Shown: positions 4,178 to 57,352, numbered from the stretch's first letter. The stretch is 64,000 nucleotides of DNA from an uncultured Thiobacillus sp. (GCA_964440155.1 CAYTRH010000001.1:624-64623); one strand, 5' to 3'. Translations and numbers: made by a program. The notes: generated by a model not told the origin, from the sequence alone.

Positions 4178-4490
4178 CGATGGGCGGCAAGTGGATCACG
4201 ACGGTGGCGTCGCGCGGCACGGCGGGCGGGCCGTAGCGCACCGGGCCGTAATACACACGGCTGTCGTAATACAGCGGAGCGCCGTGGACATAGACCCGTT
4301 CGCGCACGACGTGCCGCTCCGGCCATGCGCGCCGGTCGTGGTGCGGGTGCCAGTGCGATTGGGTGTGGCTCCAGTGTGGACCCGGCGGGCCGCGCCATGG
4401 GCCGCGATCGTGCGCCATCGCGCCTTGGGCCAGGCCGAGCGCGCCGACCGCCATCAGTCCGGTGAGCATTGATCGAAATGGTTTGCGCAT
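4167..4490 (-). CDS. Small secreted His/Pro/Trp/Tyr-rich protein of unknown function
   Basis: 107 aa. It has a Sec signal peptide (MRKPFRSMLTGLMAVGALGLAQGAMA). The mature part is rich in H, W, P, R and Y (HDRGPWRGPPGPHWSHTQSHWHPHHDRRAWPERH...). GC3-rich codons support coding. Confidence 0.55.
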   Translation of the reverse strand: MRKPFRSMLTGLMAVGALGLAQGAMAHDRGPWRGPPGPHWSHTQSHWHPHHDRRAWPERHVVRERVYVHGAPLYYDSRVYYGPVRYGPPAVPRDATVVIHLPPIVIR

Positions 4491-4767
4491 GATCGACTCC
4501 TCGTATCCGGAGCGGAAACCGGCACCATGCCGGTCCGCCCTGTTTCCAGGGTATGCGCGATGGGGCCAGGCCAGGGTTTCAAGGCGTTACCAGATGTAAC
4601 ATGCGCGTTCGATGCTCAACGCCGTGGTGCGTGCGCGTCGACACACCTGCCGCATACCGTGTCGATGGCACGCGCGAGCAGCCCCAGGGTAGGGCAAGCG
4701 GCTACGCCATGAACGGTTTGGCGTTACCATTGCCGCACGCGTTCGTCCCCTCGATTCCGGAGCCTCC

Positions 4768-6405
4768 ATGATCCACGCACTCGCAGGCAAACCCGCACCC
4801 GCCGACCGCCTGACCGACATCGAAGCGCTGTTGCGCGCGTATCAGGACACACCCGACATCAGCCAGCCCGCTCAGCGGGTCGCCTTCGGCACCAGCGGAC
4901 ATCGCGGTAGCGCGTTCAAACGTTCGTTCAACGAGGCGCACATCCTCGCCATAACCCAGGCGATCTGCGAATACCGCAGCGCCCAGGGCATCACCGGACC
5001 GTTGTTTCTGGGCAAGGATACGCACGCGTTGTCCACGCCGGCCCAGGTCACGGTGCTGGAGGTGCTGGCTGCCAACGGCGTGGAAACCCGCGTGCAGTCG
5101 TTCGACGGCTACACGCCCACGCCGGTCATCTCGCGCGCCATCCTGGCCTACAACCGGGTGCAGGGCGCGCCGCGCGCCGATGGCGTGGTCATCACGCCGT
5201 CGCACAATCCGCCCCAGGATGGCGGCATCAAGTACAACCCGCCCAACGGCGGGCCGGCCGATACCGACGTGACCGGCTGGATCGAACAGCGCGCCAACGC
5301 GTTGCTGGCCGACGGCAATCGTGAGGTCAAGCGCGTGCCCGCGGCGCAGGCGCTGTCCGCGCCGACCACGCTGCACGAGGATTTCATCGCCGCGTACGTC
5401 GCCGACCTCGACGAGGTCATCGACATGGAGGCGATCCGCGCCGCCGGCCTGCGCATCGGTGTCGATCCCCTGGGTGGAGCGGCAGTGGCCTACTGGCAGC
5501 CGATTGCGCGCAAGTACGGTCTGGACATCGAGGTGGTGAACACGCGCGTGGATCCGGCGTTCGGGTTCATGACGCTGGATCACGACGGTCAGATCCGCAT
5601 GGATTGCTCCAGCCCCTATGCCATGGCCGGTCTGGTGGCCTTGAAGGATCGTTTCGACGTCGCCTGGGGCAATGATGCCGACGTCGACCGCCACGGCATC
5701 GTCACGCCGTCCATGGGCCTGATGAACCCCAATCACTATCTCGCCGTCGCCATCCATTACCTGCTTACGCATCGGCCGCAATGGCCGGCGCGCGCGGCCG
5801 TGGGCAAGACGCTGGTGTCGAGCGGGCTGATCGATCGCGTGGTCGCCAGTCTGGGGCGCGATGTCCTGGAAGTGCCGGTGGGCTTCAAGTGGTTTTCCGC
5901 CGGCCTGCTCGATGGCGCCCTGTGCTTCGGCGGCGAGGAGAGCGCCGGCGCGTCGTTCCTGCGACGTGACGGCACGGTCTGGACGACGGACAAGGACGGC
6001 ATCATTCTTGGCCTGCTCGCGGCCGAGATCACGGCCGTGACCGGCAAGGACCCCGGCGTCTACTATCAGGAACTCGTTGCCCGTCACGGCACGCCGTTCT
6101 ATGTGCGCATCGATGCGCCGGCGACGCCGGCACAGAAGGCAGCATTCAAGCAACTTACCGGCGAGCGCGTCACGGCCGCCACGTTGGCCGGCGAGCCCAT
6201 CCTCGCGCGGCTGACGCGCGCGCCCGGTAACGATGCGCCGATCGGCGGGCTGAAGGTGGTGACCGCCAACGGCTGGTTTGCGGCGCGCCCCTCCGGCACC
6301 GAGGATGTCTACAAGCTCTATGCCGAGAGCTTCAGGAGTGAGAGCCACTTGCAGGACATCGTGCGCGAGGCGCGCCTGATCGTCGGCGCCGCACTGGCCG
6401 GGTAG
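4768..6405 (+). CDS. pgm: Phosphoglucomutase, alpha-D-glucose phosphate-specific
   Basis: 545 aa. It is collinear with E. coli Pgm as I recall it: FGTSGHRGS, phosphoserine loop [23 protein letters not shown], and GEESAG. Confidence 0.95.
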
Positions 6406-6420
6406 GGGACGGGTACAGCC

Positions 6421-7116
6421 ATGCGGCCGGTGCGCGGGCTGGCGCGCTGCGCGCTGCTGGCGATCGGCGGCGCATCGGTGGCGGTGCCCGGCCATGCCCA
6501 TGCCTCCGAACCTTCGGCCACGTCCAGCCCGCCGGCCGCGACGACGGCGACTACCGCTTGGGTCGCCACTGGCCCGCAATACCTGGCACGCGCGCGGGAA
6601 CTGGAGCGCCGCGGCGACTGGCAGCGGCTGATGCTGCTGGCCTACGAGTGGACCGCGCGTGAGCCCGGTGACGCCCTTGCCTGGTTCGTGCTGGGGCGCG
6701 CACTCGGCGCCCGACGTCTGCACGGCGAGGCCATCGCCGCGTATCGCGAGGCTGTGCGCCTCGACCCAAACGACGTGCATGCGCTCATCAATCTGGGCAA
6801 CCTGTACCGCCAGTCTGGCAGGCCGCTGGAGGCACTCGGCGCGTATCGGGCCGCGCTCGCGCGCAATGCCGGCTTCGAGCCGGCCTGGCACAATCTGGGC
6901 ATCGTCTACTTCGACGTGAAGGGCGCGCAGGGCGTCATGCTGGCCTTGCAGCGCTTGCAGCTCGAGGATCCGGCGTTGGCCCAAGCGTGGCGCGCGCTGG
7001 CGCTGGAGTATGCACGTGTGCAAGACGAACGCATCGCGCGTGCCGCCGTGGCATTGCTGCGCGGTTTGAGCGAGCAGCGCCGCAATCGCATGTTCGACCT
7101 GCTGCTGTCCGATTGA
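6421..7116 (+). CDS. Secreted tetratricopeptide-repeat protein
   Basis: 231 aa. It has a signal peptide (ALLAIGGASVAVPGHAHA) and several TPR units (AWFVLGRAL..., ALINLGNLYRQSGRPLEALGAYRAALARNAGFEPAWHNLGIVY). Confidence 0.7.
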   Translation: MRPVRGLARCALLAIGGASVAVPGHAHASEPSATSSPPAATTATTAWVATGPQYLARARELERRGDWQRLMLLAYEWTAREPGDALAWFVLGRALGARRLHGEAIAAYREAVRLDPNDVHALINLGNLYRQSGRPLEALGAYRAALARNAGFEPAWHNLGIVYFDVKGAQGVMLALQRLQLEDPALAQAWRALALEYARVQDERIARAAVALLRGLSEQRRNRMFDLLLSD

Positions 7117-7183
7117 GTGCACCGGGCAGACCGCGGCCTGCGACCGGGTGGCGGCACGGTAGAATGATCGCCCTTGCAACGAC

Positions 7184-7864
7184 ATGCAGAGTCTTCCATT
7201 GCCGCTCACCACGCGCCGCTACGAACTGCTGATCTTCGATTGGGACGGCACCCTGATGGATTCCACCGGCGTCATCGCCGCCTGCATCCAGGCGGCCAGC
7301 CGCGACATGGGGCTGCCCGAACCGACGCGCGAGCACGCGAGCCACATCATCGGGCTGGGCCTGCGCCAGGCGCTGCTGACCCTGTTTCCCGATCTGCCGG
7401 ACGAACAGCACCCGGAACTGGCGGCGCATTACCGTCGCCACTTCCTTGCCCGCGACGCCGAGATCCCGCTGTTCGACGGCGCGTTCCAGTTGATCGACGA
7501 GTTGCGCGCGCAGGGTTATCTGCTCGCCGTGGCCACCGGCAAGGCGCGCACGGGCCTGCGGCGGGCGCTCGACCACACCGGGCTGCACGCGCATTTCCAT
7601 GCGACGCGCACCGCCGATGAGACCTTCTCCAAGCCGCATCCGGCCATGATCCAGGAGTTGCTGGACGAACTGGGCGTGGACAAGGCACGCGCGCTGATGA
7701 TCGGCGATACCACGCATGACCTGGAGATGGCGCGCAATGCCGGTGTCGCCGCGCTGGCGGTGGCTTACGGCGCGCATCCCGCCGAGCAGTTGGAACGCCT
7801 GAATCCACTGGCGGTATGTCGTGAGTTCGGCGAGCTGGCGCGATGGCTGCGCGCGAACGGCTGA
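7184..7864 (+). CDS. HAD-IA family hydrolase (phosphoglycolate-phosphatase-like)
   Basis: 226 aa. HAD motif I is FDWDGTLMDS, and motif IV is MIGDTTHDLEMARNAG. The same position (after rne-rluC, before the S49 peptidase) is seen in Pseudomonas. Confidence 0.85.
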   Translation: MQSLPLPLTTRRYELLIFDWDGTLMDSTGVIAACIQAASRDMGLPEPTREHASHIIGLGLRQALLTLFPDLPDEQHPELAAHYRRHFLARDAEIPLFDGAFQLIDELRAQGYLLAVATGKARTGLRRALDHTGLHAHFHATRTADETFSKPHPAMIQELLDELGVDKARALMIGDTTHDLEMARNAGVAALAVAYGAHPAEQLERLNPLAVCREFGELARWLRANG

Positions 7865-44269: not shown

Positions 44270-44610
44270 CGGACACTCCACAGGATGTCGGCCGCCCAGA
44301 CCAGGCAGGCGAGATAGAGGGCGCCGAACAGGAAATAGGCCGCCAGACGCAATGGCAGCACGCGCAGATAGTCGATGAAAATTTCGCGCAGGCCGATCCA
44401 GGCATGCAGCAACAGCGCCGCGAATGCCAGCAGCGTGGCCAGCTTCATGGTCAGCGACGTGAACAGTGCGCGCCAGGCAGCGTAGTCGAGCGGCGTGGAG
44501 AGCCACGACAGCAACAGGAACAGTGGCAAGAACAACGCCAGATAAAGGGCGCTGGCGCGTTGCAGCAACCACAGGCCCAGTCCGCGGCGTGCGCCGCCAG
44601 CGGTTCTCAC
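44266..44610 (-). CDS. sdhD: Succinate dehydrogenase hydrophobic membrane anchor SdhD
   Basis: About 114 aa from a GTG at 44610 that overlaps the sdhC stop (GTGA). It has three TM helices. Its stop overlaps the sdhA start by 4 nt. Confidence 0.8.
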
Positions 44611-44981
44611 CGTGACGCCCCCAGCCACAGTAACGCGGTGAGTGCGATGGCCAGCCACAGCGTCACCTGTGCACTCAGGCGCGCGCGTGCACGCGTCTCG
44701 CCCAGGCCGAAATCGAAACCGAGGTGGCGCAAGCCGGCGAAAAAATGGTGTAGCAGCGCCCAAGTGGCGAGCACCCCGGCCACCCGGCCCACGCTGCCGG
44801 ACAACAGGTCGCCCAGTCGGTGAAAATCGTCCGCCGAGCGTAGGGACAACATGAACAGGTACAGCAGACCGGGTATGGCGAGCGACAACAATGCGCCGCT
44901 GGCACGATGCAGGATGGACACCAGTCCGCCGATGGGCAGGCGGATGCGGATCAGGTCCAGATAGTACGGCCGCCGGTTCAT
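44607..44981 (-). CDS. sdhC: Succinate dehydrogenase cytochrome b556 subunit
   Basis: 124 aa. [29 protein letters not shown] is a typical SdhC N-terminus with the heme-ligand His. Confidence 0.9.
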
Positions 44982-45102: not shown

Positions 45103-46017
45103 TCAGAACCAGTATTGCCAGGCGAGTTTGAAGCCGTCCGTCTTGCCTGCCTGCATCAGCGTCAGACCGGCGCGGTAGCCGCCGCCGGTGGCCTTGTAGC
45201 TGCGCGTGTCACCCACCGTCACGCTGATCTCCTGCTGGCTGTCGGCGAAGATCTCCGAGCCGAAATAACGCGTGTCCACCAGCGAGATTTCCCACCAAGC
45301 CTTCTTGCCGAACATTTGCCCGGGAATGGCCGCCATGACACCGTTGCGCAGGATGTTGTTGTGCGTGCGAGACAGGTTGGCGCGCGCGTCACCGCGTTCG
45401 CGCACGGTGTGGCTGTGGCCGAACATGTTGCCGATACCCAGGTCGTAGCCGTCCATCCTCCAGTAGTACACGCTGGTCAGGGACGCCGACACCAGATTGG
45501 CGGCCTTGTCGAAATCGCCGCGTTCGGCGTGGGTGTAACTCAACGCCGGCGTCAGGTACCAGCGTGCGGCCATGGGATAGGTGTAGGCGGCGCCAAAGCC
45601 CACGTTGTAGGCGCTCTCGCCTTCTGACCAGACGCGCGTGACCGGCAGACTCAACACCAGGCGGCGGCGCGGGTCCACCTCGTTGCGTATGGTGTAGCTG
45701 AGCGGCACGGTGCAGTACTTGGAATCGATGTTGCGTCCGGAGAACGAACCGCAGTTCAGGCCCACGCCATAGCTGGCCGGCGCGGCGCCCGGCGTTGTCG
45801 GCGCGCCATCCGCTTCGTACTCGAAGTGCATGACGCTGAACGCCGTATCGAAGTCGCTGGTCGCCTGCATCTGGATGCTCGACGCCGGCGTCTGCGTCAC
45901 CGGGTCGCTACAGATGTAGCTGTGCGTGTGGTGATCGAACTCGCAGGCTGCGGTGGCATGGCCCGCGACGAAGGTGAGCGCGACCACGGTCGCAGCCCGG
46001 ATCGGCAATGCTTTCAT
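45103..46017 (-). CDS. Small outer-membrane beta-barrel protein (autotransporter-beta-domain-like), Cys-containing N-terminal segment
   Basis: About 304 aa from the ATG at 46017, with an SD (AAGGGGAA). The signal peptide is MKALPIRAATVVALTFVAGHATA. Amphipathic strands alternate, and the C-terminal aromatic signature is ...FKLAWQYWF. Four Cys lie in the first ~100 mature residues. Confidence 0.7.
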   Translation of the reverse strand: MKALPIRAATVVALTFVAGHATAACEFDHHTHSYICSDPVTQTPASSIQMQATSDFDTAFSVMHFEYEADGAPTTPGAAPASYGVGLNCGSFSGRNIDSKYCTVPLSYTIRNEVDPRRRLVLSLPVTRVWSEGESAYNVGFGAAYTYPMAARWYLTPALSYTHAERGDFDKAANLVSASLTSVYYWRMDGYDLGIGNMFGHSHTVRERGDARANLSRTHNNILRNGVMAAIPGQMFGKKAWWEISLVDTRYFGSEIFADSQQEISVTVGDTRSYKATGGGYRAGLTLMQAGKTDGFKLAWQYWF

Positions 46018-46061
46018 GATGGATTCCCCTTGAAAGAAAAAAATGCAGGTCGAACAGGAAC

Positions 46062-46742
46062 TCAACGTCCGGAGACCCCGCGCAGATTTTCCAGTATGGC
46101 CTCGGCCACCGCGTTGCCGGGCTGGCGGCACAGGATGTCCTCGATGACTTCCGGGATGTCCTTGTACAGCTTCAGCTCGTACAGCGCGCTGACCAGATAC
46201 AGTTCGGGCGCAACGTCATCGTCCGCCGCCTGCGCGCGCAGCTCACGGTAAACCGACTCCGCCTCGCGCAACTGTTCGAGCAGGCCGCCAGAGCGGATCA
46301 CCACCATGCCGGTGCGGGTACGCATGTCGGCCAGCACATCATCGGCCCGCGCCAAGCGCATCAGCGCCGCGCTGGGCACCTGCTTCACTTCCGCCTGCGC
46401 CGTGCCGGAGACGCGCGTCGTGGCGCCCGCTCCCACTTGCAGAACGGTCGGGCCAGCCCAGGTTTCCTGGCGGCCTGAGTGGCCATACAGCAAGCGCACG
46501 CGCGCCGCGTCGCCGAGTTCCAGGCGGTCGCCGGCACGCAGTTTCATGAACGGCGTGACCGGCGTGCGCGGCTGCTGTCCGATGTTGACCCAGACGACGC
46601 CTTGAGCCAACGTGACCAGCGCCTCGTCGGCCATGGCCGGCAGCGCAAACAGTACCGCCCCTATCACGGCCCAACTGCCGCAGAACAGACGCCACCCACG
46701 AGCGGCCCGAACGAAGGTGGCGCGCGTCGTGTCACTGACCAT
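46062..46742 (-). CDS. Secreted FecR-like domain protein
   Basis: 226 aa. It has a signal/anchor (WRLFCGSWAVIGAVLFALPAMA). A beta-rich segment, GVVWVNIGQQPRTPVTPFMKLRAGDRLELGDAARVRLLYGHSGRQETWAGPTVLQV, resembles the FecR sensor fold. The C-terminus is helical. It overlaps the cyclase gene by 11 nt. Confidence 0.55.
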   Translation of the reverse strand: MVSDTTRATFVRAARGWRLFCGSWAVIGAVLFALPAMADEALVTLAQGVVWVNIGQQPRTPVTPFMKLRAGDRLELGDAARVRLLYGHSGRQETWAGPTVLQVGAGATTRVSGTAQAEVKQVPSAALMRLARADDVLADMRTRTGMVVIRSGGLLEQLREAESVYRELRAQAADDDVAPELYLVSALYELKLYKDIPEVIEDILCRQPGNAVAEAILENLRGVSGR

Positions 46743-48642
46743 GATCCGTCTCCATCGTCACGTCGAGGATTTCGTAAATGCTGACCGGCTGGCGATGTCC
46801 CTTGACGCTGACCACATCGCTGCGCCCCAGTCGCAGATGCTCGCGCCCAGCGGCACTGACGGTGGCCTCGCTGGCGACGATGTCGGCGTGGAACACCTTG
46901 GTCATCCCTTCCAGGCGTGAGGCTATGTTTACAGTATCGCCGATCGCCGTGAATTCGCTACGTCGGCGCGAGCCGATGCTGCCGACGATGGCGTCGCCGG
47001 TGTGGATGCCGATGCCGATCGCGAACTCGGGCAAATCCCGGTCGGGGAAGCGCCGCGTCATCCAGGTGCGAAACTCCAGCGCGATGGCGCGCATGCGCAG
47101 CGCGACCCGCAACGCGCGCAGCGCATGATCGCTGGTGGGCAGTGGCGTGCCGAACTCCACCATGATGGCGTCGCCGATGTACTTGTCGATGCTGCCGCCT
47201 TCAGCCAATACCGGCTGACAGACGCGCTCGAAGTACTCGTTCAGTACTTCCACCACTTCGGCCGGCGCAAGCTGCTCGCTCAGCGTCGTGAAATTGCGGA
47301 TGTCGGAGAACAGCACCGTGATGTGCGACAGGCTGCCGCCCAGCTCCGGCACCTGATCACCGCGCAGCAGCACTTTCACCGCCGCATCCGACAGGTACCG
47401 GCCAAACAGGCCGGCCAGCCGGGCACGCTGACGCGCTTCACCGGTGAATAGCAGCACCACGCCGCCGACGAAGGCGGCCAACAGGGCGCCATGCCAGGCC
47501 GCCACGGAAACCAGGAAGCCTTGGATGAACAACGGGTAAGCCGACGCGATGACCAGCGAACCCGACAGCAGCGCGATGGCGGTGCCGATCGGCAACGAGC
47601 CGGATACCAGCAGCGCCAGCGCGACCAGCGCGGCAAGCGTGGCGGACACGCCGATGCGCATCCAAGCGGGCGGTTCGTGCAAATGGCGCCCGGACAGCAG
47701 GGTTTCGAGGATGTTGGCTTGAAGTTCGGCGCCACCCATGAGCTGTCGGCCGTCACCGGCGAAGCCGGTGCTGTACGGCGTGAAATGGATGTCACCCATG
47801 CCGGGGAAATCGGCGCCGATGATCACCACCTTGCCGGCGAACGATCGCAGCAACGGATCGTCCGGGGCCGCACTGAGCAGGTGCGCCAGCGACAGCCTCG
47901 GCATCGCGCCTGGCGGTCCCCGGTAAGCGATGTGGCGTGCCTGTCCGTTGGCTGCCGGGCCCGCTGCCCCGTTCCGCTCGCGATGATGCTTGGCGAGCAA
48001 CGCGGCGAAGCTCAGCTTCGGCAGGGCCAGCCCGGCATCATCCGTGTCGGTCTTGGCGGTCGGTGCGATCACGTAACGTCGTACCACGCCGTCATGGTCG
48101 GCATGCAGCTCGGCCAGCCCGACGTAATTGGTCAAATCCAGATCCGGGACGGCCAGCAAATAATCGGGGTGCGGCAGCGCAAAACGATCGCCGCCACCCG
48201 AGTCGTCGCGGGCCAGCCCGGCCGCGAGCACCACGTCGCCGGCGGCGATGGCCTGGCGCAGACCCGCGTCATAAACCCGCGCGCGCCCGCCCAGCGGCCC
48301 TTCCACTTTGGCCAGCCAGGCATCCGGACTGATGGCGAGCAGAAAATCCAGACCGATGACGCTGGCGCCGAGCGCGCGCAGGCGTTCGATGGCGGTGGCG
48401 AAATGCGGGCCGAAGAAAGCCAGCGGCTCGTCGCCAAACCGCACCAACGTGGCCTGATCGACCACCACCAGCGCCACGTGTGCGGGTGTGCCGCGCGTGC
48501 CGGCGAGACGATGCCAGGCATCGGAATACAGTGCATCGAGCGGTGCCAACAGGCTGGAGCGATAGGCCGCCTCGGCCAAAGCGACCGCCGTGACCACGAC
48601 CAGCAGCAACCAACGCCATTGCCGTCGCGACAGGCTGGTCAT
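46732..48642 (-). CDS. CHASE2 sensor domain-containing class III adenylate cyclase
   Basis: 636 aa. The layout is an N-terminal TM helix, a ~300-aa periplasmic CHASE2-like region, three TM helices, then the cyclase domain. The cyclase domain reads ITVLFSDIRNFTTLSE...IDKYIGDAIMVEFG...GIHTGDAIVGSIGS...FTAIGDTVNIASRLE. The Lys (DKYIGD) / Thr (FTAIGD) pair is the ATP-specifying type. Confidence 0.85.
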   Translation of the reverse strand: MTSLSRRQWRWLLLVVVTAVALAEAAYRSSLLAPLDALYSDAWHRLAGTRGTPAHVALVVVDQATLVRFGDEPLAFFGPHFATAIERLRALGASVIGLDFLLAISPDAWLAKVEGPLGGRARVYDAGLRQAIAAGDVVLAAGLARDDSGGGDRFALPHPDYLLAVPDLDLTNYVGLAELHADHDGVVRRYVIAPTAKTDTDDAGLALPKLSFAALLAKHHRERNGAAGPAANGQARHIAYRGPPGAMPRLSLAHLLSAAPDDPLLRSFAGKVVIIGADFPGMGDIHFTPYSTGFAGDGRQLMGGAELQANILETLLSGRHLHEPPAWMRIGVSATLAALVALALLVSGSLPIGTAIALLSGSLVIASAYPLFIQGFLVSVAAWHGALLAAFVGGVVLLFTGEARQRARLAGLFGRYLSDAAVKVLLRGDQVPELGGSLSHITVLFSDIRNFTTLSEQLAPAEVVEVLNEYFERVCQPVLAEGGSIDKYIGDAIMVEFGTPLPTSDHALRALRVALRMRAIALEFRTWMTRRFPDRDLPEFAIGIGIHTGDAIVGSIGSRRRSEFTAIGDTVNIASRLEGMTKVFHADIVASEATVSAAGREHLRLGRSDVVSVKGHRQPVSIYEILDVTMETDHGQ

Positions 48643-48650
48643 GGGCCGGC

Positions 48651-50936
48651 TCAGCGTCCGGTGGACTGAAACGCGGCCCAGAAGTACGGCGCGTGGCCGG
48701 CACGCAGCATGGCCACCTGTGCGCCGCGCAGCGCCTCGGCCGGGTCGTGCGTGGCCAGGCCGGCGTAGAAGCGGCGCATCAGCTCGGCGGTGGCCAGATC
48801 ATCCACCGGCCACAGGCTGGCGACCACGTTGCGCGCGCCGGCGAACAGAAAACCGCGAATCAGACCGATCACGTCGTCGCCGCTCATGACCGTGCCCAAT
48901 CCGGTCTCGCAGGCGCTGAGCGTGACCAGATCGGCATCCAACGCCAATCCGTACAGTTCGTCGACGCTGAGACGGCCGTCGTTTTCAGCGTCCGCCGCCA
49001 GCAACAGGCCCGAGCGTAAAGGCTGTTCGGCGGAAAAGTGGCCGTGCGTGGCGAAATGCAGCCAGGCATGGTATGCGGCGCGCGCGCGAAACGCCGTCTC
49101 ACTGGCCTCGGCCCGGGTCAGCAGGGTGCTGCCCGGCATGGCGGCGAGAATGGCGCGCGCTTCCTGTTCGGCGTGGGGCAGGTCCAGACGCCGGCTGCCC
49201 AGGTCCGGATTGGCCAGCACCAGCGCGCCGGCGGCGGCTTTGTCCGGACGGCGCGGCGCGAGGAAGCGCAGCAGGCTGGCACTGGGCAGGATGGCGAAGG
49301 CGACACGCTCCACCAGATGACGCTGGCCGTCATGCAATGCGGCGAACGGCAGATAGTGCAGCGGGCCATGCGGAACCAGGTACAGCTTGCGCACGTCGGC
49401 GGCCTGTTCGACCGGGCCGAGCAGACGCCGGTGCAGTGCCTGTGCACGCGGCAGCACGTCCGCCGCCTGATCGGCGATGGCCTGGCGCAAGCCACGGATG
49501 TCATCGGCCAGGTTCCCTGCTGCACTGCGCACCACCCGCAGGTCGCGGCCGGACACCAGAAACGCCAGCAGTTCCTCGCCATCGACATGGTAGGCCAGCA
49601 GCCGTTCGTCCGGCGCCAGCATCGCCTGTAGTTCGGCCAGCGACAGCGTGGACACGGCGACGAGCGAGGCGATCTCCGGATCGATCTCGCGCAGCCGCGC
49701 AATCGCCTGCGCGCCATCGCGCGGTTCCGACATGTCGGTCATCTGCCGGCGCCTGGCTTCCTCGGCGCTGCGCTGGGCCAGCAACAGGCGGGCGACCTCG
49801 TCCCCCCGCGCGCGTGGGCCCCAGTCCTGGCGGGCGGCGAGCAGGTCGACCAGCGCACGCGCGCGTGAACGCTCGACGTACTCGAAGGCATCGCGCTCGC
49901 GGCCTAGCCGAAGCAGCGTGCGGATCAGACGCGCATACACCTGCTGCTTGTCGCCGACGAAACCGATCTTGTTGGCTTCCGTGGCGATGCTGGCGCGTTG
50001 CGCCTCCAGCACCTCGACCGCATGCGCGTAATGGCGCGCGGCCTCTGCGTCCTCGCCGCGCTGTTCGGCGATGCGGCCACGGTCGAAACTGGCCATCCAG
50101 TAGATCTCGCCGTTCTGGCGCGCGCGCGGATGGCCCAGCAAGCGGTCCAGGCGGGCGGCCGCGGCATCGACTTCGCCCATGCCCAGCAGGGCGCGGCTCA
50201 GCATGTAGGCGCGCGGCAGTTCCTGCCACAGCCAGTTGCTCTCGCCGCGCAACAGGGCGCCGCTGAACAGGTCGTCGAGGAAGGCATCGAGCTTGAACGT
50301 GCGGTCGCTGCTGACCGCGTCATAGGCCTGGCGGTACTCGCCCAGCGCCATGTACACCCTGCCCTGCGCCAGCGCGCGCGTGGTCTTGTAATCATCCTTG
50401 AACAAGGAGCGCCCGATGCGGCCGATGGGTTCCAGTTGCGTGCGTGCGGCGGCGTGGTCACCGCGGAACGCATGGGCGAGTGCCAGCACGGCGTGGCTGT
50501 CGATGGCGATCAGCGGTTCCAGACCGGAGCGCGCCATCCAGTCGAGCGCACGTTGCGCCTCGCGCGCCGCGAGGTCGTAACGTCCCAGATCGATCGCCGC
50601 CTCGGCCCGCATCAGCAGGATCGCCGGCATGGCGTCGTCCAGACCGAACAGCACGCTTTCGCGATCAGCCCGCGCGAAAGCGGTCTCGAAACGGTCCAGG
50701 CAGGCTTCCAGGCGGGCGTAATGCTTGGTCCGGGCATAGGCATGGCACAGCATGTGCACTTCGCTGGCCGACAGGCGCTCCGGTCGCGTCACCGCCTCGG
50801 CCTGCTGGATCACCTGTTCGTACTGGCCCGCGGCGATCAGGCGTAACCACTGGTTGGCCTGACGGCTGGCGTGCGCATACGCACTGGCAAAGGCCAACAG
50901 CACCAACAGCGCGATCAAGGACGGGCGGCTCGACAT
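48651..50936 (-). CDS. Secreted TPR-repeat / CHAT-domain (caspase-fold) protease
   Basis: 761 aa. The signal peptide is MSSRPSLIALLVLLAFASAYAHA. About 400 aa of TPR-like helical repeats follow. The C-terminal CHAT domain has an intact His/Cys dyad (LHFATHGHF ... LVTLSACETGLG). Its stop lies 8 nt upstream of the cyclase start. Confidence 0.85.
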   Translation of the reverse strand: MSSRPSLIALLVLLAFASAYAHASRQANQWLRLIAAGQYEQVIQQAEAVTRPERLSASEVHMLCHAYARTKHYARLEACLDRFETAFARADRESVLFGLDDAMPAILLMRAEAAIDLGRYDLAAREAQRALDWMARSGLEPLIAIDSHAVLALAHAFRGDHAAARTQLEPIGRIGRSLFKDDYKTTRALAQGRVYMALGEYRQAYDAVSSDRTFKLDAFLDDLFSGALLRGESNWLWQELPRAYMLSRALLGMGEVDAAAARLDRLLGHPRARQNGEIYWMASFDRGRIAEQRGEDAEAARHYAHAVEVLEAQRASIATEANKIGFVGDKQQVYARLIRTLLRLGRERDAFEYVERSRARALVDLLAARQDWGPRARGDEVARLLLAQRSAEEARRRQMTDMSEPRDGAQAIARLREIDPEIASLVAVSTLSLAELQAMLAPDERLLAYHVDGEELLAFLVSGRDLRVVRSAAGNLADDIRGLRQAIADQAADVLPRAQALHRRLLGPVEQAADVRKLYLVPHGPLHYLPFAALHDGQRHLVERVAFAILPSASLLRFLAPRRPDKAAAGALVLANPDLGSRRLDLPHAEQEARAILAAMPGSTLLTRAEASETAFRARAAYHAWLHFATHGHFSAEQPLRSGLLLAADAENDGRLSVDELYGLALDADLVTLSACETGLGTVMSGDDVIGLIRGFLFAGARNVVASLWPVDDLATAELMRRFYAGLATHDPAEALRGAQVAMLRAGHAPYFWAAFQSTGR

Positions 50937-50999: not shown

Positions 51000-52460
51000 T
51001 CAGAGCGTCTCGGCGTGCCAGCCCAAGGGCGACAGCCCGCGCGCCATCGCGCCCGCCTCCAGCGCGCGCAGGAAGTCGTGCGGTCCGACCGCATACAGAT
51101 CGGTATGGGCCAGATCGCCATGGTCGGCGAGCAGTCGTTCCACCAGGCCGGCCGGGTCGTGCGCGCCATCGATCGGGTGGTAATGGAAGTTGTCCATCGC
51201 ATCGGCCCAGGAACGGCACAGGTTGTCCAGGTAATGTCCGGTTTCGCCCGCCACCCAGTACAGGTGCATGGCATCGGCGATCTCCAGCGACATGGCATGC
51301 TGGATCAGGCTCTGGATCGGCGCGAAGCCGTGCTCCCAGGCGACGAACAGGGCCGGCCGGCGCGACTCGATGTTGTACACGAAGCCGCCGAACGGCCCCT
51401 CGATGGTGACGGTGTCCTCTTTGGCCAGGCTGTCGAAGGCCTTGCGCGCGAACGGCCGGTTGTCGCGGCGGATGTGCAAGGTGATCTGGCGGTCCTCGCA
51501 CGGGCAACTGGCGACGTGATACTCGCCGGCGATGCCGTCCGCACTCAGGCGCACGCGTTGTCCGGCCAAAAAGCGCAGGCGCTGGCTGCGTGGCGTGGTG
51601 AGATGCAGCGACAGGATGCGTTCGCCCAACCGGTCCACCGCCTTGACCCGCGCCGGAATGCGCTGCTGTGGGATGTCGGCGGCGCCGGCCACGGCAGCCT
51701 CGATCACCACGTCGGTTACCGCCGTGTAGGAACACAGCAGGAATTCGCCATTGGCCTTGTCCTGCTCACGGAAGGTGAAATCGTGCGGATGCACCTTGCG
51801 CAACTGGCCGGACACCAGACGCGCACGGCATTCGCCGCAGTTGCCGTTGCTGCAGCCGTAATTGAGCGGCAGGCCGACGCGCAAAGCGGCTTCCAGCAGC
51901 GTGTCGTTGCCCTCCACCAGGAACTCGTGGCCGGACGGCTGAACCGTGACTTGTGCGGACATGATGCGCATCACACTTTCGTGGGCCAGCAGCGATTCCG
52001 CCCGCTCGGCTTCCTTGGGCGCCGCGTCGAGCTCGCGTCTGAGCCATAGTTTCACTCCGGCCACGGCCTCGTGCAGGGCCGGGCCGCCCCGGTCGGCCAG
52101 ATCGTCCAGCTTGTCGTTGAGGAAGCGCAGCACCTCGTCGTAATGCAGCAGCAGCGTCTTGGCCGCGGCGAACTCGCGCCCCATCTCGAACAGCCGCTCG
52201 GCCAGCACCTCCTTGTCCGGCAGCGCGCGCTCGTAGATGCGCTTGCCGTACGCCTTCTCCTTGATCTCCTGTACCCGTTTGAACTCGCCGTCGTCCTCCC
52301 AGCTCACGTCGGGGAACACGCGCAGCAGCTCGTTCATGTCCACCATGCCATCGAAAGTGGCGAGTTCGCCATCGTGGATCATGCGCTGGATGCTCGCGCG
52401 CGATTGTCCGACCAGGCGGGCGACACGGGACAGGGGAAGGTAATGCGCCATGGCACGCAT
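51000..52460 (-). CDS. HTH / coiled-coil / plant-type [2Fe-2S] ferredoxin / FNR-like domain fusion protein
   Basis: About 484-487 aa (ATG at 52460 or 52451). The N-terminal segment is excisionase/MerR-like (LPLSRVARLVGQSRASIQRMIHDGEL). The ferredoxin motif is CSNGNCGEC...C. The FNR-like domain carries EGPFGGF, but RxYS is replaced by GEYH, GGTGxAP by WEHGFAP, and CGP by VGP. Confidence 0.7.
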   Translation of the reverse strand: MRAMAHYLPLSRVARLVGQSRASIQRMIHDGELATFDGMVDMNELLRVFPDVSWEDDGEFKRVQEIKEKAYGKRIYERALPDKEVLAERLFEMGREFAAAKTLLLHYDEVLRFLNDKLDDLADRGGPALHEAVAGVKLWLRRELDAAPKEAERAESLLAHESVMRIMSAQVTVQPSGHEFLVEGNDTLLEAALRVGLPLNYGCSNGNCGECRARLVSGQLRKVHPHDFTFREQDKANGEFLLCSYTAVTDVVIEAAVAGAADIPQQRIPARVKAVDRLGERILSLHLTTPRSQRLRFLAGQRVRLSADGIAGEYHVASCPCEDRQITLHIRRDNRPFARKAFDSLAKEDTVTIEGPFGGFVYNIESRRPALFVAWEHGFAPIQSLIQHAMSLEIADAMHLYWVAGETGHYLDNLCRSWADAMDNFHYHPIDGAHDPAGLVERLLADHGDLAHTDLYAVGPHDFLRALEAGAMARGLSPLGWHAETL

Positions 52461-52510
52461 GTTAGTCGCGCGCGTGGCGGTTACCAAACAGCGCCCTGTA
52501 ATATTCGCAC

Positions 52511-54220
52511 ATGCTGAATCTCGTTCTCCGGCACGCGCCGCCAGCCGCCACGCGCGCACTGGCCGCTGCCGGTCATCCTCCGCTGCTCGCGCGCCTGCTG
52601 GCGGCACGCGGTGCCACGGTCGACGACCTGAAGACGCGGCTGGATGAACTGCTGCCATTCACCGCGCTGCTGCATGCCGATGCTGCGGCCGCGCGCTTGG
52701 CCGACGCGATCGCGCGCGGCAGTCGCCTGCTGGTGGTGGGCGACTACGATGCCGACGGCGCCACCGCCACCGCGGTCGCGGTGCAGGGACTGCGGGCATT
52801 CGGTGCCCACGTCGACTACCTGGTGCCCAATCGGTTCGAGTATGGCTACGGTCTGTCGCCGGAGATCGTCGCGCTGGCCGCAGATCGCCACCCCGACCTG
52901 TTGATCACGGTGGACAACGGCATTGCCGCGCACGCCGGCATCGAAGCCGCGCGGGCGCGCGGCATGGAGGTGTTGGTCACCGATCACCACCTGCCCGGTG
53001 ACAGCCTGCCCGATGCGTTGATCGTCAACCCCAACCAGCCCGGCTGCCCCTTTCCCAGCAAGCATCTGGCCGGCGTGGGCGTGATGTTCTACGTGCTGAT
53101 GGCGTTGCGCGCCGAACTGCGGCGTCGCGGACGTTTCGATGCGCTGTCCCAACCCAACCTGGCGCGTCTGCTCGATCTGGTCGCGCTCGGCACCGTCGCC
53201 GACGTGGTGCGCCTGGATGCCAACAACCGCTTATTGGTGGCGCAAGGCTTGGCACGCATGCGCAACGGGCATGCCCGGCCGGGCATCCAGGCGCTATTTA
53301 CGGCTGCGGGCCGCCGTATCGAGCGCGCCAGCGCGGAAGACCTCGGCTTCGTCATCGGCCCACGCTTGAACGCCGCCGGCCGGCTGGCCGACATGAGCAT
53401 CGGCATCGAATGCCTGCTGGCCGAGGCCATCGACGCGGCGCTGCCGCTGGCGCGCGAACTGGACCGGCTCAACCGGGAGCGGCGCGAGATCGAGAGCGAC
53501 ATGCAGGCGCAGGCGCTGACCCTGCTCGACGGTGTGACCGTGGCGGATGGCGCCAGCCTGACGCTGTTCGACCCGGCCTGGCACCAGGGCGTGATCGGCC
53601 TGCTCGCCTCGCGTCTGCGCGAGCGTCATCACCGGCCGGTGATCGTGTTCGCCGACGGTGGCGATGGCCTGCTCAAGGGATCGGGCCGCGCCATTCCCGG
53701 CCTGCACCTGCGCGATGCGCTGGACCGCGTGGACCGGCTCGCGCCCGGGCTGATCCTGCGATTCGGCGGGCATGCGGCGGCGGCCGGCCTGACCTTGCCG
53801 CGTGCGCGGCTGGATGAATTCGCCGCACTGTTCGAGGCGGTGGCGCGCGACAGTCTGTCGGCCGCCGATCTGACGCGCTCGATCGAGACCGACGGCCCGC
53901 TGGCGCCGGCGGAGTGCACCTTGCGCGACGCCGAGACGTTGCGCGACACGGTATGGGGACAGGGATTCCCGCCGCCGCTGTTCAGCGGCGAGTTCGTGGT
54001 CGAAAGCCAGCGTCTGGTCGGCGACCGGCATCTGAAGCTGCGCCTGGCCGGTGGCGGCCTGGCCGCGGATGCCATGCTGTTCTTCCATGACACACCGCTG
54101 CCCCAACGCATCGAGGCGGCCTATCGTCTGGAGGTGAACGAATGGAACGGTACGCGCACGCCGCAGTTCCAAGTGACGCACTGGAGCGAGGCGCGTCCGC
54201 CTGCCGCCGCCGCAAGCTGA
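52511..54220 (+). CDS. recJ: Single-stranded-DNA-specific exonuclease RecJ
   Basis: 569 aa. DHH-family motifs are LLVVGDYDADGATA, VDNG and LVTDHHLPG. A DHHA1 region follows. Confidence 0.95.
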   Translation: MLNLVLRHAPPAATRALAAAGHPPLLARLLAARGATVDDLKTRLDELLPFTALLHADAAAARLADAIARGSRLLVVGDYDADGATATAVAVQGLRAFGAHVDYLVPNRFEYGYGLSPEIVALAADRHPDLLITVDNGIAAHAGIEAARARGMEVLVTDHHLPGDSLPDALIVNPNQPGCPFPSKHLAGVGVMFYVLMALRAELRRRGRFDALSQPNLARLLDLVALGTVADVVRLDANNRLLVAQGLARMRNGHARPGIQALFTAAGRRIERASAEDLGFVIGPRLNAAGRLADMSIGIECLLAEAIDAALPLARELDRLNRERREIESDMQAQALTLLDGVTVADGASLTLFDPAWHQGVIGLLASRLRERHHRPVIVFADGGDGLLKGSGRAIPGLHLRDALDRVDRLAPGLILRFGGHAAAAGLTLPRARLDEFAALFEAVARDSLSAADLTRSIETDGPLAPAECTLRDAETLRDTVWGQGFPPPLFSGEFVVESQRLVGDRHLKLRLAGGGLAADAMLFFHDTPLPQRIEAAYRLEVNEWNGTRTPQFQVTHWSEARPPAAAAS

Positions 54221-54227
54221 GCGACGC

Positions 54228-55676
54228 TCAGCGTATCCCGGTCAGGCGCGCCTGCAGCAGATTGCGCAAGGTCGCCAGTGTGGCCAGCTCCGCCTTGGTC
54301 AGCTTGACGTCGTCGTGCTGCTGGCCGAACAGCAGGCCCATGGCGTTGCCATCGGCGGCGGTCATGGGCAGCAGGAAGAACGGGTGCAGCGCATGCGCGC
54401 GTATCCATGCCGGCAGGTGCGGCGCGATCTCGCCGTCGCGCGGATTGTCGATGTAGATGTCCGCACGCTTGGCCAGCGCGACATGCGCCAGATCGCGCGC
54501 AAACTGCGCCGGTAGGGTCAGACCGGCGAGCGCATTGGGTTCGCGCGCGGCCAGCGTGGCGCGCACGCGGTACACCTGCTGTGCCCCGTCGAGCAAAAAC
54601 ACCGCGGCGCGGCTCAAATCCAGCGCCCGGTAGATCACCTCCACCACCATGCCGGCGATGTCGGCGGGTGTGCCGCCCTGTTCGATGGCCGCACGCACCT
54701 CCGCTTCACCATCGCGCAGCTTGTCCAACGCCGATGGCGCGGTCGCAGGCGACAGCACATCGGCCGGCGCTGCCGATTGGGTCGATTGCAGCACGCTGGC
54801 TCCCGGCTCCAACAGCGCCGCCTGTGTGGCCGACAGCAACTCCTCGTGCGCCAGCCCCAGACGGTCGGCGAAGCGGACGGCCAGGCGCTGCTGCAGTTTC
54901 TGCTTGATGTCCTCGCTGGCGCTGGTCGATAGCACCGACGCGGAACTGTCGGCATAGCGGGTGATCGCCAGCAGCCAGTCCTCCACACCCTCCACCTGAT
55001 CGTCCTGTTCGCCGCGCAGGGTCAGCACGATCCTTGCCGGCAGCCGCCAGTGCCGCGCCACGCTGGCGCCGAGCTGCTCCAGCGTCAGGCCGAGCACGTC
55101 GCGCGCGGCGCCCTCCTCGTCCCGACCGGACTGCACGCGCTGCTGGATGCGCGTCCATTCGTGCGGCAGATAGAACGCCGTCAGCAGGCGGCCGACGCGG
55201 TGCAGCAAGGCACACACCACGCCCAGCTCGCCGTTCTTCACCTGCATCTTGGCGGTGACGTTGCCGGCCACCGAACCCGCCACCAAGCTGTGCGCCAGTT
55301 GCCGGCGCGCGCTCAGGGACTGCGCGTCCATGGCCTCCATCGAGCCGATCACCTTGGCCCCCAAGGCCAGATGGCCTATCGCCTCGAAGCCGAGCACCAT
55401 CATGGCGTGCGAGATGGTGGCGACATTGCCGCCGATGGGCGCGTACATCGCGGAGTTGGCCAGGCGCAGCACCTTCTGCGTCAGCGATACGTCGGCCAGC
55501 ACGGCGTTGACCAGCGGCGCACTGTCCTCCGCCCCTACCTCCAGCGCTTCGATGATGCGGGTAACCGAGTGCTCCAATGCGGGGAAGCCACCGCTGGCGT
55601 TCATGCGCTCGATGACGCGGGCCAGCAGCGCAGTGTCCGTCTGCGTAGCGCTCGCGGTCACGGCGTCAGCCGCCAC
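54228..55676 (-). CDS. HDOD domain / GAF-like domain signalling protein
   Basis: 482 aa. It has a canonical HDOD (FPALEHSVTRIIEAL...LADVSLTQKVLRLANSAMY...ISHAMMVLGFEAIGHLAL) and a C-terminal GAF-like region. It overlaps the GGDEF-EAL gene by 19 nt. Confidence 0.8.
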   Translation of the reverse strand: MAADAVTASATQTDTALLARVIERMNASGGFPALEHSVTRIIEALEVGAEDSAPLVNAVLADVSLTQKVLRLANSAMYAPIGGNVATISHAMMVLGFEAIGHLALGAKVIGSMEAMDAQSLSARRQLAHSLVAGSVAGNVTAKMQVKNGELGVVCALLHRVGRLLTAFYLPHEWTRIQQRVQSGRDEEGAARDVLGLTLEQLGASVARHWRLPARIVLTLRGEQDDQVEGVEDWLLAITRYADSSASVLSTSASEDIKQKLQQRLAVRFADRLGLAHEELLSATQAALLEPGASVLQSTQSAAPADVLSPATAPSALDKLRDGEAEVRAAIEQGGTPADIAGMVVEVIYRALDLSRAAVFLLDGAQQVYRVRATLAAREPNALAGLTLPAQFARDLAHVALAKRADIYIDNPRDGEIAPHLPAWIRAHALHPFFLLPMTAADGNAMGLLFGQQHDDVKLTKAELATLATLRNLLQARLTGIR

Positions 55677-57352
55677 ACCCCCGCCTCCACCTGGTCCTCG
55701 AACGCCTGCGGCGCTACCGGACGTGCCAACAGATAGCCCTGCATCAGATCACAACCCTTGTCGCGTAACAACGCATATTGTGTCTCGTTTTCCACGCCTT
55801 CCGCGACCACGCGCAGACCCAGCTCGCGCCCCAGGCTAATAATGGCAGCGACGATGGCCCGGTCGTTGCCGTCGCTGTCCAGGTCCACCACGAAGGTGCG
55901 GTCGATCTTCAGGCTGGACAGCGGAAAGCGCTTGAGGTAGGCGAGCGAGGAATAGCCCGTGCCGAAGTCGTCGACGGCGAAATTGACGCCGCGTTCGCGC
56001 AGCCGCGACAACAGCGCCTGCGCGCGTTCCGGCTCGCGCATCAGCATGCCCTCGGTCAGCTCCAGGGTCAGCAGCTCGGCCGGCAAGCCCGATTCGTCGA
56101 GGGCCCGCTCGATCACGCCGACCAGGTCACCCTGGCGAAACTGGGCCGGCGACAGATTCACGGACGCCTGCAAGCGTGCGCCCCAACGCTGGTTCCAGCG
56201 CGCCACCTGATGACAGCTCACACGCAGCGACCAGGCGCCCAGGAACGTGATCAGGCCATTGGCCTCGGCCAGCGGGATGAACTCCGCCGGCGAGACGGCG
56301 GCGCCGTCGGTGCGCTGCCAACGCATCAGCGCCTCGACCGCCACCACGTCGCCGCTGGCCGCAGCGACGATGGGCTGGTAATGCATCTCGAATTCGCCGT
56401 TGCGCACGGCGTCGTACATCTGGTCTTCCAACATCAGGCGGCGTTCCGCCAGGGCGCCGCCCTCCGGCGCATAGACGTGGCAGCGGTTGCGCCCCGCCTG
56501 TTTGGCCAGCGACAGTGCGATTCCGGCCTGCTTGAACAGCGCCTCGGCCTCGCCGGCGTGCTCGGGAAACAGCGCGATGCCGATGCTGGCGGACAAATGG
56601 CTCTGGCCGCGGTCATGCTCGAAAGGACGCTGCATCGTCGCCAGCAGTTTGTGCGCCAGCCGGGCCGCATCTTCGGGGGCGCGCATACCGGGCAGCAGCA
56701 ACGCGAACTCGTCGCCGCCGATGCGGGTCACGAGGTCATCGCCACGCAGTGCGGTGCGCAGTCGCCGCGCCGACTCGCACAGGACCCGGTCGCCCAGCGC
56801 ATGTCCCAGCGCGTCGTTGATCTTCTTGAAGCCGTCGAGGCCCACCAGCAACAAAGCGAATCCGTTCGTGCCATCCTGCGGTTGGCCGATCGCCTGAGCG
56901 AGCGCACGCATCAGTTCGACGCGAGTGCCCAGGCCGGTGAGCGGGTCACGCGTAGCAGCGTCGCCCTCGATCCGATGCGTGACCGGGTCGAACTCCCAGG
57001 CAGCGAACAACAGCTCCACCCGCCCCGACGCGCCCGGCAGCGGCAGGATACGGCAGGTGGCCCAACGCTGTGCGCCGTTGCCGGCCAGGAAACGCAGGCT
57101 CAGGGCCTGGCGGGCGGCACCGTCACTCGCACGCGCCAGCGCGGCGCGGAGCGCATCGTGGTGTTCGACGGCCACATGCTGGAATAGCCGGTGTTCGGCC
57201 CCCGTCTCCGCCGGTTCGGCGGCACCAAGCCAGCCCAGCCCCGCGGGGGGAATGAACAGGAAACGCCCGTCCGCGGTCACGCGCGCGAGGAAATCCGCCA
57301 GCCGGTCGGCCAGCCGTTCGCCCGTCGCAGCGGCGACGGGCCGTTCGCTCAT
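55658..57352 (-). CDS. PAS-like / GGDEF / EAL protein (diguanylate cyclase-phosphodiesterase)
   Basis: 564 aa. The GGDEF motif is intact (RIGGDEFALLL), with an RxxD I-site five residues upstream (RGDD-LVTRI-GGDEF). The EAL domain is intact (AVEALMRW, DDFGTGYSSL). Confidence 0.9.
   Translation of the reverse strand: MSERPVAAATGERLADRLADFLARVTADGRFLFIPPAGLGWLGAAEPAETGAEHRLFQHVAVEHHDALRAALARASDGAARQALSLRFLAGNGAQRWATCRILPLPGASGRVELLFAAWEFDPVTHRIEGDAATRDPLTGLGTRVELMRALAQAIGQPQDGTNGFALLLVGLDGFKKINDALGHALGDRVLCESARRLRTALRGDDLVTRIGGDEFALLLPGMRAPEDAARLAHKLLATMQRPFEHDRGQSHLSASIGIALFPEHAGEAEALFKQAGIALSLAKQAGRNRCHVYAPEGGALAERRLMLEDQMYDAVRNGEFEMHYQPIVAAASGDVVAVEALMRWQRTDGAAVSPAEFIPLAEANGLITFLGAWSLRVSCHQVARWNQRWGARLQASVNLSPAQFRQGDLVGVIERALDESGLPAELLTLELTEGMLMREPERAQALLSRLRERGVNFAVDDFGTGYSSLAYLKRFPLSSLKIDRTFVVDLDSDGNDRAIVAAIISLGRELGLRVVAEGVENETQYALLRDKGCDLMQGYLLARPVAPQAFEDQVEAGVWRLTP

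Follow-up and report, generated by a model that had tools for sequence, protein, structure and literature searches.

We investigated a four-gene cluster on the minus strand of a 64,000-nucleotide stretch of DNA from an uncultured Thiobacillus sp. (GCA_964440155.1 CAYTRH010000001.1:624-64623; hereafter the window), at positions 45103-50936. The cluster may represent a conserved envelope signaling module in which a protease-linked, periplasm-facing input feeds into a CHASE2 adenylate cyclase, a reading to which we assign a probability of roughly 45%. From 5' to 3', it encodes a TPR-CHAT (caspase-fold) cysteine protease predicted to be exported (g1, 48651-50936, 761 amino acids [aa]), a CHASE2 receptor adenylate cyclase (g2, 46732-48642, 636 aa), a small, putatively exported partner protein from an unnamed family (g3, 46062-46742, 226 aa) and a predicted outer-membrane 12-strand beta-barrel from another unnamed family (g4, 45103-46017, 304 aa). 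The CHASE2 domain, defined in 2003, occurs widely in cyclases, kinases and diguanylate cyclases; to our knowledge, neither a ligand nor an activation mechanism is known for it. Altogether, the module interpretation is plausible from sequence and has a strong genomic association behind it.

We surveyed the neighborhoods of g3 relatives using one genome per species. A g3 relative was found in 128 genomes, from which 80 species-level loci were kept; 69 of these were evaluable for a CHASE2 gene upstream, and 37 had enough flank on both sides for CHAT genes to be counted. Carriers were mostly Betaproteobacteria (Burkholderiales, Sulfuricella, Sulfuritalea, Thiobacillus, Gallionellaceae, Polaromonas), with a few Desulfobacterota-like metagenome-assembled genomes (MAGs). 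A CHASE2 gene lay immediately upstream of g3 in 61 of the 69 evaluable loci, and a CHAT gene was present in 32 of the 37 fully evaluable ones (30 detected by phmmer, two more by Pfam), directly adjacent in 24. The genes flanking the module vary by lineage and form unrelated contexts, suggesting that the unit travels as a cassette. The CHAT partners also differ: some are ~770 aa long, as g1 is, others ~1,100 aa and rich in TPR_10/TPR_12, ~880 aa and encoded after g3, or ~1,350 aa. The presence of such distinct subfamilies beside cyclase-g3 pairs suggests repeated recruitment. An apparent fusion of CHAT and cyclase in a single open reading frame (L014) was discarded as an artefact of a masked run of N. 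Separately, two tandem copies of g3 follow the CHASE2 cyclase gene in 19 of the 80 loci, many of them in Burkholderiales (including L024, L031, L032, L034, L035, L040, L049, L052 and L053), and the copies are diverged paralogues.

Two proteins link g3 to a protease within one chain. In P0076 and P0128, a g3 domain is joined to a caspase domain of the Peptidase_C14 type whose HG and DSC catalytic motifs are intact; the N-terminus is clearly signal-like in P0128 and similar but apparently truncated in P0076. Both genes directly follow a CHASE2 cyclase gene and precede TPR-CHAT genes. As judged from sequence, this "Rosetta stone" fusion ties the g3 domain to caspase-fold proteases on the predicted periplasmic side of CHASE2 cyclases. 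The first-pass annotation of this DNA had proposed that the four genes form one functional unit with a periplasm-facing layout, and this proposal is strongly supported by synteny in different contexts together with the g3-caspase fusion.

Variant clusters hint at further proteases and at effectors of cyclic AMP (cAMP). In one of them (L118, 2476-11212), the genes encode, in order, an M48 peptidase, a g4 barrel, a TPR-CHAT protein, an SH3 and M48 peptidase protein, a CHASE2 cyclase and a class II cAMP phosphodiesterase-like protein; we counted the M48 proteases adjoining the CHASE2 cyclase there in favor of the protease-linked reading. In two others (L023, 4368-5636; L110, 13331-14677), the CHASE2 cyclase-g3 pair adjoins a gene for a Ser/Thr kinase that carries a cyclic-nucleotide-binding domain at its C-terminus. 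This kinase, for which the window holds no equivalent, is a candidate cAMP effector of the module family.

The architecture proposed for g2, a transmembrane helix, CHASE2, three transmembrane helices and a class III cyclase with a Lys/Thr substrate pair, was recovered by Pfam, hydropathy and motif analysis. Throughout, signal peptides and transmembrane helices were assigned by hydropathy and inspection. A single N-terminal hydrophobic helix (residues ~10-27) leads into CHASE2 (PF05226, E 2.8e-33, residues 22-343, nucleotides 47614-48579), and a hydrophobic block at residues 326-404 could hold about three transmembrane helices ahead of the cyclase domain (residues 439-623, nucleotides 46774-47328; Guanylate_cyc, PF00211, E 1.8e-24). 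In a motif alignment, all six class III catalytic positions are kept (D447, D491, K487, T565, N572 and R576). Among class III cyclases, a Lys/Thr substrate pair marks the adenylate type, and the product of g2 is predicted to be cAMP from Lys487 and Thr565. The closest solved structures to the cyclase domain are bacterial adenylate cyclases, and the CHASE2 part had no match among solved structures.

The CHAT domain of g1 (PF12770) matches at E 6.4e-73, with 246 bits against a cut-off of 24, over residues 497-760 (nucleotides 48657-49448). It carries a dyad of His631, in FATHGHF (starting at 628), and Cys676, in LSACETG (at 673). Among aligned module homologues, the His is conserved in 44 of 44 and the Cys in 47 of 47, which argues for catalysis. 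The N-terminus of g1, MSSRPSLIALLVLLAFASAYAHA, resembles a cleavable signal peptide (residues 1-23), and signal-like N-terminal segments were present in 23 of 31 complete CHAT homologues. Between the two, up to residue ~496, lies a helical region that had been annotated as TPR repeats: its TPR matches in g1 itself (TPR_16/TPR_4) are weak and below Pfam thresholds, but TPR_2/TPR_12 exceed threshold in orthologues. An assignment of g1 as the CRISPR-associated protease Craspase Csx29 was rejected (NCBIfam, 43 bits against a cut-off of 300; no CRISPR-associated neighbors).

The partner g3 had been described as a secreted FecR-like beta-sandwich with a helical tail. The export signal (a signal peptide ending …LPAMA/DE), the beta-sandwich and the tail were retrieved, whereas the FecR label failed every sequence test. 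An AlphaFold model (predicted local distance difference test score, pLDDT, 81) shows a nine-strand beta domain at residues 40-121 and a TPR/Fis1-like helical tail at 124-224. A GRQETW motif is conserved in the family, and the conserved G145 and R150 fall within a low-confidence loop of the model. No Pfam, NCBIfam or PADLOC match to g3 was found, with none in Pfam or NCBIfam even at E = 10, and the FecR profile (PF04773) was unmatched in eight members of the g3 family. Comparing a 134-sequence g3 profile with a 21-sequence FecR profile by hhalign gave E 0.034 and a probability of 1.5%, and hhalign of g3 profiles against NsrA, a FecR-containing protein of Sinorhizobium meliloti, and against a Shinella FecR protein returned no significant match. 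With the whole g3 model as Foldseek query, the matches listed were weak and TPR-like, none reached E < 0.02, and FecR-type structures were absent among the 50 listed. We thus rejected FecR for g3 at the sequence level (Pfam, NCBIfam, hhalign against NsrA, the Shinella protein and the FecR profile, and a PDB sequence search). The best hhalign pairing sets the "GD" strand region of g3 against the start of the FecR domain, which is probably the source of the earlier impression. A profile search of 1.84 billion representatives yielded ~700 representatives or clusters of g3, nearly all ~220 aa long. On sequence evidence, g3 is better described as new: a separate, previously unnamed family.

For g4, the start codon was taken to be the ATG at 46017, which a Shine-Dalgarno-like AAGGGG precedes. 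Its signal peptide is followed by a Cys-x10-Cys hairpin, a helix (47-61) and a barrel (82-303), and the AlphaFold model has 12 strands following the helix. The top Foldseek matches are the beta-domains of EspP, BrkA, Hbp and NalP as well as the amyloid exporter FapF (E 6e-12 to 1e-9). The protein ends in WQYWF, and the YWF end is invariant across the family. The model and Foldseek thus bear out the annotated autotransporter-beta-like barrel with its WQYWF end and a short Cys-containing N-terminal segment. No match was found in Pfam, NCBIfam or PADLOC, nor in a PDB sequence search. The 304-aa form lacks a passenger domain, and ~410-aa relatives carry just ~110 extra residues. A classical type Va autotransporter was rejected as an identity for g4, since the profile is unmatched and merely ~55 residues precede the barrel; the likeness in fold alone holds. 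Homology to the NsrA barrel was also rejected, no similarity being detected.

A separate scan for g4 relatives gave 22 metagenome loci, of which 19 were evaluable, and in all 19 a g1-type TPR-CHAT gene directly followed the g4 relative. The same pair stands alone on an Azospirillum oryzae plasmid. As g4 keeps company with CHAT, and g3 with CHASE2, the four-gene module is the union of a barrel-CHAT pair and a CHASE2 cyclase-g3 pair. In one relative with different flanks (L007, 7415-8470), a 351-aa CsgG-like gene (weak Pfam match) lies after g4; the window has none.

Such a composite raises the question of whether the pairs are two separate neighboring systems, g4 and g1 forming a surface or secretion protease, with g4 as translocator or anchor by analogy with FapF, autotransporters and TpsB, and g2 and g3 an unrelated sensor, so that adjacency would reflect shared regulation or chance. 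The structural proximity of g4 to protein translocators favors this view, as do two contexts elsewhere. TpsB/TpsA genes adjoin a TPR-CHAT gene on a plasmid of Caballeronia (L094). In Sulfuritalea MAGs (L079, 3653-9606; also L075 and L084), g3 lies after a two-partner-secretion exoprotein gene (TPS and DUF5649 repeats) and the gene for a small protein of the OmpA family, and CHASE2 is absent from the vicinity. Both contexts suggest that g3 and CHAT may have links to type Vb secretion; our literature search found no paper pairing "CHAT domain" with "two-partner secretion." We nevertheless consider two independent systems unlikely. CHAT proteases of several subfamilies, mostly without g4, accompany the cyclase-g3 pair at the 32 loci counted above, and g3-caspase fusions are encoded beside cyclases. 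In the window itself, the four genes were confirmed as co-directional, all on the minus strand and spaced as annotated (an 8-nucleotide gap between g1 and g2, an 11-nucleotide overlap between g2 and g3 and a 44-nucleotide gap between g3 and g4), and the first gap and the overlap suggest translational coupling.

The mechanism that we propose starts from what was established computationally, namely the identities of the domains, intact catalytic residues, export signals as predicted from hydropathy, a gene order that recurs across loci, the fusion of g3 to a caspase domain, the fold of the barrel and its pairing with CHAT. The module would join two two-gene units that are older than itself. In one, the inner-membrane CHASE2 cyclase g2 would have a dedicated small periplasmic partner, g3; in the other, g1, an exported protease of TPR-CHAT architecture and caspase fold, would have an outer-membrane 12-strand barrel of its own, g4. 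g3 would dock on the periplasmic CHASE2 domain, as adaptor, substrate or inhibitor, and its TPR-like tail would recruit the protease or be held by it. A cue sensed by the TPR arm and/or the barrel would then cause CHAT to cut g3 or the CHASE2 ectodomain, and we infer as a candidate cleavage or contact site the conserved, Arg-containing flexible loop of g3 at residues ~143-150. Cleavage would lift the inhibition of the cyclase and lead to cytoplasmic cAMP. The barrel would act as the outer-membrane partner of the protease, whether as anchor, input or translocator.

The conserved CHAT dyad fits proteolytic gating, and so does the behavior of CyaD1, a CHASE2 cyclase that produces cAMP constitutively when it lacks CHASE2 (PMC5498481); removal or remodeling of the ectodomain complex is thus a plausible "on" switch. 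Stated more broadly, CHASE2 receptors would be protease-activated, a periplasmic caspase-fold system (CHAT or, in some lineages, Peptidase_C14-g3) cutting g3 or the inhibitory ectodomain to switch on cAMP irreversibly. We put this broader claim forward tentatively and regard it as fairly unlikely.

The protease could instead produce a ligand. CHAT and the barrel would act upstream to process an envelope or extracellular protein, the products of which would be sensed by g3 and CHASE2, with g3 serving as a non-proteolytic CHASE2 co-receptor in a role that might be likened to that of the FecR-domain proteins of other CHASE2 receptors. The signal of the CHASE2 cyclase CyaK is indeed proteinaceous and protease-sensitive (PMC7529298), g4-CHAT occurs as an independent unit without cyclases and the cyclase-g3 pair is found without CHAT at some loci. 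The covalent g3-caspase fusion, however, argues for direct coupling between g3 and a protease rather than a distant upstream role, and we find this account rather doubtful.

Several observations weigh against a protease-gated module. At least five of the 37 fully evaluable loci have no detectable CHAT gene, which suggests that the cyclase-g3 pair can work alone or with a protease encoded elsewhere. Conversely, most g4-CHAT pairs have no CHASE2 cyclase in their neighborhood, suggesting that the protease has an independent role. The barrel is rare in module versions: it was found in 7 of the 80 loci, positioned after g3 or before the CHAT gene. Of the synteny expected from the first-pass annotation, CHASE2-g3 and CHAT are thus conserved and g4 is not a constant member; the outer-membrane protein, suggested there as anchor or input, is not the genomic partner of the cyclase: the barrel pairs with the CHAT gene and is missing from most module versions. 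Promoter and terminator scans returned no signal relevant to operon structure or co-transcription beyond what shuffled sequence would give. We searched the window for a cyclic-nucleotide-binding effector, a phosphodiesterase and paralogues of the module genes and found none, so that no cAMP receptor is encoded within these 64 kb. Finally, export of the module proteins is predicted from hydropathy only, and the physical contacts, the substrate and the direction and sign of control are all inferred.

The genomic setting also speaks to whether the cluster is a conflict or programmed-cell-death system, in which a caspase-fold effector and a nucleotide cyclase would be combined as in Pycsar/CBASS-like or STAND/CHAT defense. 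The cyclase domain matches Pycsar PycC profiles (PADLOC, best E 1.9e-25), bacterial conflict systems often contain CHAT and caspase domains (PMC8195603) and single-chain caspase-CHASE2 fusions are known (PMC3501461, PMC8195603). The PycC matches, however, stem from the homology that class III cyclases share in general, neither g3 nor g4 is matched in PADLOC and the substrate residues are Lys/Thr, of the adenylate type. Protease, g3 and g4 carry predicted export signals, whereas such defense effectors act in the cytoplasm. GC content is even across the region, with no composition anomaly and no mobile-element context. Membership in Pycsar itself failed, given a membrane CHASE2 cyclase, the Lys/Thr pair and no cyclic-nucleotide-binding effector in the window. 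We therefore judge a conflict system highly improbable.

The cluster lies, as annotated, between the sdh operon and recJ, with one further gene intervening before recJ. Downstream is sdhCDAB-sdhE-gltA-sucA, the nearest gene being sdhC (44607-44981); upstream is a gene for an Fer2/FAD-binding reductase (51000-52658, minus strand), then the divergent recJ. We rejected the reductase gene as a module member, as its co-occurrence is confined to close relatives whose flanks are the same. It encodes a BenC/AntC-like 2Fe-2S ferredoxin and FAD-binding reductase with a ~230-aa N-terminal extension (weak match to a DNA-binding protein), and its start is placed ~66 codons later in other annotations (486 aa). 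Just past recJ (54228-57352, minus strand) are genes for an HDOD and GAF protein and then a PAS-GGDEF-EAL protein, a cyclic di-GMP signaling pair ~4 kb or less from the cAMP module.

The recurrent association of CHASE2 cyclases with exported caspase-fold proteases, together with the domain fusion, suggests periplasmic regulated proteolysis as an input to CHASE2. That a dedicated small partner links many CHASE2 cyclases to predicted exported caspase-fold proteases is a testable hypothesis, and the analysis defines two families, the g3 partner (~700 clusters) and the g4 barrel, the partner of CHAT proteases. If true, caspase-like proteases would act in signaling outside the bacterial cytoplasm, in an extracytoplasmic "caspase-to-second-messenger" pathway that would also provide the first general input mechanism for CHASE2. 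The cAMP-binding Ser/Thr kinase or the cAMP phosphodiesterase encoded beside the module in variant clusters would be possible effectors.

The closest characterized system is NsrA-CyaK of S. meliloti (with CyaD1/CyaD2), in which the outer-membrane protein NsrA passes on a signal, the protein uL2, to the CHASE2 cyclase CyaK (PMC7529298, PMC13001267). The first-pass annotation knew of no characterized example of the combination; it missed this partial precedent, which itself has no CHAT protease. We verified that NsrA combines FecR (E 1e-15), TPR and a C-terminal barrel in one polypeptide, encoded just upstream of cyaK. Both systems place an inner-membrane CHASE2 class III cyclase beside an envelope partner made of a periplasmic beta domain, TPR-type helices and a barrel, with cAMP as output and, in S. 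meliloti, a protein as signal. They differ in that NsrA is a single polypeptide, whereas here separate proteins occur without detectable homology to its parts, and in that the rhizobial system has neither CHAT nor another protease. In S. meliloti R11 (L011, pSymB, 4272-7861), nsrA is split over several frames by apparent frameshifts and does not appear in the gene table of the plasmid, which probably reflects an error of assembly or annotation.

This precedent allows a further explanation, a split, non-proteolytic relay of the NsrA type in which g3 and g4 would replace the single FecR-TPR-barrel protein and CHAT would be a scaffold only. The domain makeup of NsrA and its position directly upstream of cyaK lend it some weight, as does a Shinella plasmid on which the genes for a TPR/barrel protein, for a FecR protein and for a CHASE2 cyclase are consecutive, an arrangement mirrored by the domain order of g3 and g4. 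On that plasmid (L012, 963-16166), the three genes lie amid NHLP-bacteriocin export genes (C39 peptidase domains) and a gene for a cyclic-nucleotide-binding protein. Homology is detectable neither between g3 and FecR nor between g4 and the NsrA barrel, g4 tracks CHAT and not g3 or the cyclase, and the strictly conserved CHAT dyad argues for catalysis; such a relay is very unlikely. An assignment of g3 and g4 as an NsrA-type receptor failed the architecture test, these being separate proteins without detectable homology to the parts of NsrA.

CHASE2 receptors have other small partners. The Burkholderia "BiofilmReg" operon pairs a FecR/LysM partner with a CHASE2 histidine kinase, a pairing conserved across Burkholderiales (PMC5192318). 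This operon and the COG4254-type LysM/FecR and CHASE2 kinase pairs (PA4035/PA4036-like) share with the module a small exported partner beside a CHASE2 receptor. In contrast to the module, they signal through a histidine kinase and response regulator and have a genuine FecR/LysM protein as partner; protease and barrel are absent and the fourth gene encodes a DUF4136 protein. Single-chain metacaspase-CHASE2 or EACC2-caspase-CHASE2 proteins of Trichodesmium and others (PMC3501461, PMC8195603) likewise couple a caspase-fold protease to a CHASE2 sensor. Their caspase is predicted to be cytoplasmic and to be the receptor output, whereas here a separate, predicted exported protease would stand on the sensing side of a cyclase output.

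The protease and the barrel have relatives of architecture elsewhere. Csx29, the TPR-CHAT protease of type III-E CRISPR, is inactive until its partner changes state and then cuts one dedicated small partner. It shares the TPR and CHAT architecture with g1 but is cytoplasmic, RNA-guided and encoded near CRISPR genes, whereas g1 is predicted to be exported and has no CRISPR genes nearby. In FecA-FecR-FecI, an outer-membrane barrel signals to a periplasmic relay protein that is controlled by proteolysis; here, g3 fails the FecR tests, the protease is of another class and there is no TonB-dependent receptor and no sigma or anti-sigma factor. With autotransporter beta-domains (EspP, BrkA, Hbp, NalP) and FapF, g4 shares a 12-strand barrel, an N-terminal helix able to occupy the pore and a C-terminal aromatic beta-signal, and differs in lacking a Pfam autotransporter match or passenger domain and in its pairing with a CHAT gene. 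Our literature search found no paper containing CHASE2 together with CHAT. We class the module among the accessory-protein-controlled CHASE2 receptors, within which, as far as sequence comparison can tell, three features set it apart: g3 and g4 without detectable NsrA homology, a predicted exported CHAT protease and the g3 family itself.

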